DNA of 64,000 bases from sequence record PZ154895.1. One strand, written 5' to 3'. Shown one piece after another: positions 40,297 through 41,127 of this stretch (position 1 is its first letter; each line of letters begins with the position of its first letter). The DNA comes from a phage. Made by a program: the position numbers and the translations under genes. The notes below the pieces were generated by a model, which did not search any database, was not told the DNA's origin, and saw nothing but the letters and a program-made list of their open reading frames with translations.

Positions 40297-40751
40297 TGGA
40301 ATTTAAAGACTTTTCAACGGGTCTTTATGTAGCAGCTAAGTTTTCAGAATTAACACTTGATGCGCTGGAAGAACTCCAGCGCTCTTTACGTGTTCCTAAT
40401 CCAGTTCCTAGAGAAAAAATTCATTCGACCATATGTTATTCAAGAGTAAATGTTCCGTATGTTCCATCAAGCGGAAGTTTTGAAGTAGCTTCTTCTGGAC
40501 ATTTAGAAGTATGGAAAACACAAGATGGATCGACTCTTGTACTTGTGCTAGATTCTGAATATCTGCGCTGCCGACACATGTATGCGCGGGCACTAGGTGC
40601 TACACATGATTTTGATGATTACACACCGCATATAACATTGTCTTATAATGTTGGGCCCTTATCATTTAGCGGTGATGTACAAATTCCGGTCGTATTAGAT
40701 CGTGAATACAAAGAGCCTCTTAAACTCGATTGGGCAGATGATTTAAAATAA
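40296..40751 (+). CDS. 57B: gp57B, Acb1-family cyclic-nucleotide phosphodiesterase candidate
   Basis: 151 aa directly after 57A; in T4 57B encodes Acb1 (established); assignment by position and size only. Confidence 0.7.
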
Positions 40752-40754
40752 TTT

Positions 40755-40797
40755 CACAAAGTTGTTTACATGCTGATGAGGTAGTGATACTATTACC
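40755..40797 (+). promoter_or_regulatory. T4-type early promoter (-35 GTTTAC 40764-40769, extended -10 TGATACTAT)
   Basis: consensus motifs at correct spacing upstream of the CTS gene. Confidence 0.7.
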
Positions 40798-40823
40798 TCA
40801 TCAAAATTAATTAGGAAAATAAA

Positions 40824-41081
40824 ATGAAAACTTTCAAAGAGTTTGCTACAAAAACTACTATCACTGAATCTTCACACGGTATGGAAGTAAAGCTTGGAAT
40901 GGCTTTAGCTGAAGCTGAGCGTCTTTTATCTCGTATTAAAGAACTTGCTGCTGCAGTCGATCCTTCATCTTTTAAAGGAGACCAAACTAAAGTTAAAGCA
41001 CTTTTAGCATTATGCTCCGATGCAGGAGAAATTGCTAAAAATGGTTCTAAGATGAAGAAACGATTAGAAGATTTAAAATAA
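40824..41081 (+). CDS. internal-protein-like, capsid targeting sequence (CTS) bearing protein
   Basis: 85 aa; N-terminus MKTFKEFATK resembles the T4 IP capsid-targeting leader; ipI-locus position next to 57B. Confidence 0.55.
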   Translation: MKTFKEFATKTTITESSHGMEVKLGMALAEAERLLSRIKELAAAVDPSSFKGDQTKVKALLALCSDAGEIAKNGSKMKKRLEDLK

Positions 41082-41084
41082 TTT

Positions 41085-41127
41085 CACAAAGTTGTTTACA
41101 GAAGGGTAGTAGTGTGATACTATTACC
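41085..41127 (+). promoter_or_regulatory. T4-type early promoter (-35 GTTTAC 41094-41099, -10 TGATACTAT)
   Basis: near-duplicate of the promoter at 40755. Confidence 0.7.

Follow-up and report, generated by a model that had tools for sequence, protein, structure and literature searches.

Repeat-bounded promoter cassettes flanking ip5 at the internal-protein locus of a T4-like phage and their probable part in gene exchange

The 64,000-nt stretch of phage DNA analysed here (the window; sequence record PZ154895.1) carries, between the genes 57B and trna.4, a small open reading frame (ORF), ip5, which codes for an internal (injected) head protein and is flanked on both sides by the same block of an early-promoter region. 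The gene and one regulatory cassette together form a 330-nt unit with direct repeats at its ends, and some genomes have this unit while others, otherwise near-identical, do not. The site is the internal-protein (IP) locus, which is hypervariable and lies between 57B (Acb1) and trna.4, and it is very probable that a real exchange of IP genes, bounded by repeated promoter cassettes, takes place there. The original prediction, made from the letters of the window alone, had read the duplicated block as the remains of promoter-mediated modular exchange, and this origin is supported by relatives with a single copy and by junctions that lie within the repeat. The mechanism proposed below for this exchange appears well supported by the comparative evidence.

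The predicted 30-mer occurs in the whole 64 kb in two exact copies, both on the + strand, at 40741-40770 and 41071-41100. The identity extends one base further in the 5' direction, which makes the exact repeat 31 nt long (40740-40770 and 41070-41100), and it reaches 35 nt (40736-40770 and 41066-41100; repeat family D7) with one mismatch; the period is 330 nt. No third copy with up to three mismatches was present in the 64-kb window, 100 dinucleotide shuffles gave no match to the 30-mer, and such a repeat is not expected by chance. Copy 1 consists of GAT TTA AAA TAA, which is the end of 57B, the A/T-rich upstream element TTTCACAAAGTT between the stop codon and the -35, and the -35 itself (GTTTACA). 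Copy 2 has the same composition, with the D-L-K-stop of ip5, the upstream element and the -35 of the next promoter. The ORFs and the promoter scan thus agree with the prediction that both copies join the final codons and stop of the upstream gene, D-L-K-stop in 57B (40296-40751) as well as in ip5 (40824-41081), to the GTTTAC of the following early promoter. The gene with the capsid-targeting sequence (CTS) had been placed exactly between the copies, which is nearly so: ip5 starts 53 nt past copy 1, but its last 12 nt (41070-41081, the D-L-K codons and the stop) fall inside copy 2. A looser likeness continues 3' of the 31-nt block through GTGATACTATTACC and the ribosome-binding site (RBS; repeat families D2 and D6), and a weak A/U hairpin with the arms AAAUAAUUU and AAGUUGUUU, made of A-U and G-U pairs only, is predicted within the repeat. 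A scan of IMG/VR for the exact 30-mer returned only 3 contigs because this collection holds few Tequatroviruses. An assembly artefact was rejected as the source of the repeat, since hundreds of independent records, including a Sanger sequence of 1994, have the duplicated block.

The two blocks could be alike only as members of one strongly selected subfamily of early promoters (TTTCACAAAGTTGTTTACA type) that plays no role in the gain or loss of genes. Related upstream elements are indeed found at other early promoters, i.e., at 59879 (25/31) and 44905 (22/31), which are the next-best GTTTAC sites of the window after the two copies, and as AAAAAATTTCACAAAACAGTTTACA at the T4 ndd promoter, and many IP ORFs end in (L)K-stop, which brings an A-tract to the position expected for an upstream promoter element. 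However, the 52 GTTTAC-anchored sites of the window have a median identity to the block of 14/31, and the 31/31 identity of the copies, 12 coding bases included, is therefore far above the level of a promoter consensus. The subfamily explanation also fits poorly with indels of exactly one period whose junctions lie inside the block and whose remaining background has 0 mismatches, and we consider it very unlikely.

These indels were found when the 57B-trna.4 interval was sampled in 36 IMG/VR contigs and selected GenBank phages; the allele counts given here are those among the matches listed, up to 60 per search of roughly 500 to 800 records. The locus holds 0 to 5 leader-bearing ORFs, with up to five IP genes in other genera, and the number, order and identity of these ORFs differ among related phages in at least eight allele types. 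No IP gene is present in A6-6, FT, Jbel, L009 and L010; ip5 is alone in the window, F26, ESH35, AR1 and Sf23/24, and ip6 is alone in the ZN18-like L036, ECO07P4 and others. The pair ip5+ip6 is carried by OE5505 and many others, ip5+ip7 by T2, ip5+ipI by RB5, ipI alone by T4, ip7 alone by L035, and ip5+ip9+ip7+ip8 by RB15. A comparison across T-even phages had been suggested along with the prediction, and insert-free genomes that have the repeat only once do exist. In L036 and at least 13 GenBank records, 57B is followed by a single repeat and directly by ip6, in A6-6 by a single repeat and directly by trna.4, and dozens more records split the same query by 330-331 nt. The ip5-specific segment is carried by 252 records. 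The locus is also mosaic, as a phage with 68.7% DNA identity in 57B has a cassette that is 90.5% identical and contains the exact repeat; this fits a lateral spread of the cassette or its very strong conservation.

Junctions, defined as the zone over which the alignment gap can slide, were mapped in six allele pairs. Between OE5505 (ip5+ip6) and the ZN18-like phage (ip6), the indel of 331 nt has a 33-nt junction, GATTTAAAATAATTTCACAAAGTTGTTTACATA, that is the repeat, with 0 mismatches in the other 760 nt, and between F26 (ip5) and A6-6 (none), the indel of 330 nt has a 32-nt junction that is again the repeat. These are the cases of a single copy without insert, and they come from two separate backgrounds. 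The indels of 330-331 nt equal the repeat period and the junctions of 32-33 nt equal the repeat, so the copies lie at the boundaries of presence and absence as expected by the original prediction; taken together, the single-copy genomes and the repeat-length junctions speak against copies placed away from these boundaries. That the junctions are assembly artefacts is unlikely with more than 13 independent records. The remaining four pairs break outside the 31-nt block, within the cassette and always in register. The junction is AATAAAATGAAA at the RBS and start in ESH35 vs FT (328-nt indel), a 35-nt zone of the hairpin 3' arm, leader and RBS in T2 vs L035 (327 nt), the start (ATG) and leader (CTS) codons in RB5 vs T4 (330 nt), and GTGATACTATTACCCTATCAA at the -10/hairpin in SHFML-26 vs F26, where a 301-nt indel concerns ip6. 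Hybrid cassettes with mismatched hairpin arms are also found, for example before ip7 in T2 and before ipI in RB5. This indicates that the whole cassette is the substrate of exchange, within which the 31-nt block is, in this genome, the longest stretch of perfect identity. Exchange at the 30-nt block, as first proposed, accordingly describes two of the pairs, but crossovers have also taken place in the -10/hairpin and in the RBS/ATG/CTS part of the cassette.

The distribution of the junctions bears on the possibility that a sequence-specific enzyme starts the exchange, either through homing-endonuclease breaks with co-conversion of the IP locus or through a protein that recognises the hairpin. 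A homing-endonuclease ORF (GIY-YIG, SegB-like, 42370-43020) is found at a distance of 1.3 kb, and the type and position of the endonuclease vary, with GIY-YIG here, HNH in OE5505 and segB elsewhere in T4. PMC4122927 cites a preferential inheritance of the tRNA region that is driven by SegB, and a hairpin-binding recombination protein was raised as a possibility by Arbiol et al. (PMC2839356). However, the junctions are spread over at least four sub-segments of the cassette, always at the longest local identity, and a recombinase gene is absent from the unit. Scattered junctions that track identity argue for homology-guided exchange and not for cleavage at a fixed site, which makes an enzymatic start of the exchange improbable, though breaks by the nearby homing endonuclease may contribute. 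Even less can be said for an insertion of ip5 in the manner of a transposon or integron, with the repeat as the resulting target-site duplication. A single small gene bracketed by direct repeats, together with the existence of a one-copy "empty site", would agree with such an insertion, but 31-33 nt far exceeds the usual target duplications, terminal inverted repeats are absent at the ends of the unit, and no transposase or integrase is encoded in the unit, whose only ORF is ip5, or by its neighbours. The supposed duplication is moreover a functional part of a promoter that also stands before unrelated genes, and other alleles break at different points of the cassette. The target-site-duplication, transposon and integron readings were rejected on the absence of inverted repeats and recombinase and on the variable junctions; we hold an insertion of this kind to be extremely improbable.

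If IP genes are exchanged through their cassettes, the loss of a unit would result when two cassettes misalign in homologous recombination, anneal as single strands or give rise to replication slippage; its gain would come from the reciprocal unequal exchange or, in mixed infection, from a double crossover, with recombination in both flanks. The agent could be the recombination and replication machinery of the phage itself, for which short homology is sufficient. An in-register crossover within the cassette would leave one intact, sometimes hybrid, promoter and RBS, and trna.4 or the next IP gene would thus stay expressed. Comparable events are on record: in RB49 and phi1, ORFs flanked by promoter early stem-loop (PeSL) elements are lost and gained and form mini-circles on excision, the crossover zones being AT-rich, loop, and -10 to Shine-Dalgarno (SD)/ATG (PMC2839356), and T4 in the laboratory undergoes amplifications and deletions via 6-10-bp microhomologies, including the loss of ipIII (PMC9391042).

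Several points weigh against cassette exchange as described here. As roughly half of the junctions that were mapped fall into other parts of the cassette, the 31-nt block is not privileged. The clean junctions come from close relatives, F26 (the nearest ip5-only phage) and OE5505, and not from the window itself; in the alignment of the window with A6-6 the gap had no sliding zone, because the window spacer at 41101-41113 has diverged. Promoter activity, the function of the hairpins and the recombination pathway are deduced from sequence, two alleles do not reveal whether an event was a gain or a loss, the allele events may not be phylogenetically independent, and the allele counts have the scope stated above.

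Each gene of the IP locus stands behind a regulatory cassette of ~85 nt, in which the upstream stop is followed by the A/T-rich element, GTTTACA, a hairpin around a TG-extended TACTAT, a short leader, the SD sequence and ATG-AAA; in cassettes of IP genes, capsid-targeting codons that are likewise conserved come last. Two such cassettes, located before and behind ip5, have the 31-nt repeat as their 5' part. Both contain a predicted T4-type early promoter on the + strand, with the -35 GTTTACA at 40764-40770 and the TG-extended -10 TACTAT at 40788-40793 in promoter 1 (40764-40793), and with the corresponding elements at 41094-41100 and 41118-41123 in promoter 2 (41094-41123). The promoter scan rated both sites as promoter-like (TTTACA, 17-nt spacer, TACTAT, TG extended -10); promoter 1 would drive ip5 and promoter 2 trna.4. 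A matching GTTTACA/TACTAT layout was annotated as -35 and -10 by the depositors of the T4 ndd record X75802.1, whose upstream element TTTCACAAAAC resembles that of the window cassettes.

RNA folding predicted a hairpin on the + strand around each -10. Hairpin 1 (40774-40803), with the arms TGATGAGGTA and TACCTCATCA and inner pairs, has -17.4 kcal/mol and z -6.05, and none of 200 shuffles folded equally well; hairpin 2 (41101-41132), with GGGTAGTAGTG in its 5' and TACTATTACCC in its 3' arm, has -15.9 kcal/mol and z -3.6. In the IP-locus cassettes of other genera, the hairpin around the -10 is kept with quite different stem sequences (z < -2 in 52 of 86), which argues for a hairpin under selection. 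There is no U-tract 3' of either hairpin and the terminator scan called neither of them, while the Rfam covariance models, applied to 40200-42200 at E <= 1, matched solely the tRNA at 42126. The spacer of promoter 2 (41101-41113) reads GAAGGGTAGTAGT, in place of the TAGGGTTTTAGTT or near variants seen in most other compared Tequatrovirus cassettes, and may be a recombinant or compensated variant; the hairpin around the -10 of this second cassette persists despite the diverged spacer. The upstream element TCACAAA(G/A)(T/C)TGTTTAC is common to the early-promoter sites at 59879-59909 (25/31) and 44905-44935 (22/31). The former sits behind a strong terminator hairpin (GGGAGCCTTCGGGCTCCC and a T-run) that follows a 337-aa ORF (58837-59850), and the latter is a homologue of the ndd promoter of T4 for which X75802.1 has the annotation.

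On the evidence of its sequence, the window is from a Tequatrovirus, a T4-like phage. The 57B-trna.4 interval matches hundreds of Tequatrovirus genomes at 95-97%, with phage F26 as the best 701-nt match (98.3%), and the gene order gp1 (dNMP kinase), 57A, 57B, ip5, trna.4, trna.3, trna.2 and the tRNA cluster is that of T4 and T2. The gene 57B (40296-40751, + strand), so labelled in T4 and T2, codes for 151 aa of Acb1, an anti-CBASS 2H phosphoesterase (Pfam PF23474 Acb1, E 2.6e-60). The ip5 gene (40824-41081, + strand, 85 aa) matches PHROG 3499 'internal head protein' over 1-85/85 with E 2.2e-49 and is annotated under this name in T2 RefSeq, RB5, RB32, RB51 and the RB15 record Z35082.1; the Ip5 of the window is 98.8% identical to those of RB15 and RB32, and no Pfam family matched it. 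The conserved right-hand neighbour of the IP locus is the trna.4 homologue (41152-41337, + strand), a 61-aa membrane protein of PHROG 1692 that is annotated as trna.4 in T4 and T2.

Cleavage by the prohead protease follows an I-x-E rule. Ip5 begins with the capsid-targeting leader MKTFKEFATKTTITE|S, the counterpart of which in T4 IPI is MKTFKEFTSTTTPVSTITE|A, and this leader has the pattern MKT[FY]xEF... that ends in a predicted prohead-protease site. By analogy with Ip1, Ip2 and Ip3 of T4, each of which inhibits a different GmrSD enzyme (PMC12373910), Ip5 is probably an injected anti-defence protein: the leader would direct its packaging, the prohead protease would cut after ...ITE, and the trimmed protein would enter the host together with the DNA and act against a host defence. 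For such a cargo, a changeable set of IPs could be selected. The literature search for the function of Ip5 itself found nothing relevant.

The end of ip5 coincides with the repeat, and we tentatively consider, as a possibility somewhat short of even, that its tail GAT TTA AAA TAA is not native and was copied from the 3' end of 57B, which would possibly be a new detail. A paralogue of Ip5 with 93 aa and 49% identity is encoded in the second IP locus of the window (49106-49387). The two proteins are homologous up to residue 82 (RLE), the very point at which the repeat begins, and past this residue Ip5 has DLK-stop vs KYISGASEK-stop in the paralogue, a tail that the paralogue has in two genera. 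The DNA of DLK-stop is identical in ip5 and 57B; the C-terminal DLK is conserved in 57B across genera, where it is ancestral, and among IP genes it is the ending of 1 of ~24 tail types. The stop of homology at the repeat, the ancestral DLK of 57B and its rarity in IPs suggest that the tail was copied during the duplication of the block. The block of 57B end plus promoter, once duplicated, could have been joined to a relative of the 93-aa IP gene between e and denV, which would make the 3' end of ip5 a chimera. An Ip5 homologue from another genus, which ends in EDLK-stop with a different promoter behind it and without TTTCACAAAGTT, weighs against recent copying. Alternatively, the tail may have arisen by convergence, as the coordinates put the terminal Lys codons and TAA, an A-tract at ~-57 to -49, at the position expected for an upstream promoter element. 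If copying is true, cassette exchange rewrites the C-termini of proteins as well as regulatory DNA.

Arrays of IP genes without cassettes were also encountered. In many relatives outside Tequatrovirus (L006, L011, L015, L018, L021-L024, L026-L032, L037, L038 and L040), the first IP gene has no promoter cassette and its ATG overlaps the stop of 57B (TTAAAATGAAAAC, ATGA overlap), and the IP genes that follow are frequently connected in the same manner or by 1-8 nt. Such overlaps point to cassette-free, translationally coupled IP arrays that coexist with the promoter-cassette arrays. In L014 (IMGVR_UViG_641509422), 57B ends in ...TTAAAGTGA, not ...TTAAAATGA, so that the overlapping IP ORF lacks its ATG; the first IP gene, which apparently has no start any more and may be decaying, is reduced to an internal Met ORF (MESASS...).

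The second IP locus of the window (48621-50345) starts with the e lysozyme gene (48621-49109), whose stop overlaps the start of the Ip5 paralogue (ATGA), and continues with a GTTTAC...GATACTAT promoter cassette, denV (49446-49862) and a 157-aa IP (49872-50345; PHROG 3155, Pfam DUF7412). A fourth leader-bearing ORF (44285-44758, 157 aa, MKSYAQFLNEAVLNE..., PHROG 2280, unknown function) lies between two terminator hairpins of 36 nt, at 44204-44239 and 44763-44798, which are 89% identical and 559 nt apart; T4, T2 and RB10 match its flanks over a span that is ~560 nt shorter. It thus seems that this ORF makes up a second unit of presence or absence with repeats at its ends, which here are terminators just after rnaC and not promoters. 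The tRNA cluster has nine genes between 42126 and 43528 (Gln, Leu, Gly, Ser, Thr, Met(CAU), Tyr, Asn and Arg) vs eight in T4, from which it differs by the absence of Pro and the presence of Tyr and Asn; the CAU tRNA may be the counterpart of the T4 tRNA-Ile. The GIY-YIG homing-endonuclease ORF, with 216 aa and a match to PHROG 314, lies inside this cluster between tRNA-Gly and tRNA-Ser, while OE5505 has an HNH endonuclease and segB of T4 lies between tRNA-Ile and tRNA-Arg.

The IP loci constitute a small exchangeable set of injected anti-restriction proteins, and promoter cassettes bounded by repeats explain how IP genes may be swapped with the expression of the neighbours unbroken. In this respect our analysis confirms textbook-level knowledge and adds little to it. 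The junction map indicates that any part of the cassette with at least 12 nt of identity can serve as a crossover point, and the allele series across hundreds of genomes offers near-isogenic natural pairs that could be used to find the target of Ip5.

Several known systems resemble the element described here. The amplifications and deletions of T4 through microhomology (Srikant et al. 2022, PMC9391042) share with it direct repeats that bound a segment and leave one copy at the junction, and ipIII is among the genes lost, but the repeats there are chance matches of 6-10 bp in laboratory evolution, while here a 31-nt functional part of a promoter is repeated in natural alleles. Integron cassettes are likewise single promoter-proximal accessory genes in repeat-bounded units that form an exchangeable array of anti-defence or adaptive functions; in contrast to them, the IP locus has no integrase and no attC or attI, each unit brings its own promoter, and the exchange is apparently driven by homology.

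The likeness to the PeSLs of RB49/phi1, PST/T4 and nt-1/KVP40 (PMC2839356, PMC4122927) is closer. Both have a stop within an AT-rich stretch and then, in this order, an early promoter, a stem-loop, SD and ATG, a stem-loop that overlaps the -10 is one of the five positions described for PeSLs, and both kinds of element flank variable small ORFs, contain the indel junctions and have their crossovers in the AT-rich, loop/-10 and SD/ATG zones. PeSL stems are strong, generally GGGG...CCCC, whereas those of the window are A/T-rich (TGATGAGGTA/TACCTCATCA and GGGTAG.../...TACCC) and have no polyG/polyC tract; IP elements have the T4 early-promoter consensus (GTTTAC) and stems that are weaker and richer in A/T. 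Mini-circles and promoter and terminator activity were demonstrated for the PeSLs of RB49/phi1, whereas the IP cassette described here is known from its sequence. Arbiol et al. 2010 (PMC2839356) termed the elements of the IP loci "PeSL-like", and the authors of the PeSL work regard them as analogues and not homologues of PeSLs (PMC2839356). The term PeSL-like in the original prediction is therefore right with regard to function, but PeSL in the proper sense does not apply, as the G/C-rich stem and the homology are missing.

The closest system is the IP-locus cassette of T-even phages. According to later summaries, Repoila, Tetart, Bouet and Krisch (EMBO J 1994; via PMC2839356, PMC4122927) described T-even IP loci with conserved promoter-bearing flanks, through which, as the same summaries give their idea, the IP genes are shuffled; the variable loci are two, from 57B to trna.4 and next to e/denV. 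The class features found in the window are the position between 57B and trna.4, the leader, an early promoter on both sides and varying ORFs, and the RB15 record of 1994 (Z35082.1, ip5-ip9-ip7-ip8) has the same duplicated block at 1-30 and 331-360. Locus, gene (98.8% at the protein level), block and leader motif are the same, nothing essential differs, and the window represents the ip5-only allele. The element is thus a full member of the T-even IP-locus cassette class, and because the flanks were described in 1994 and Z35082.1 contains the same block, our finding is a correct rediscovery of a principle that has been known at this locus and for this gene since 1994.

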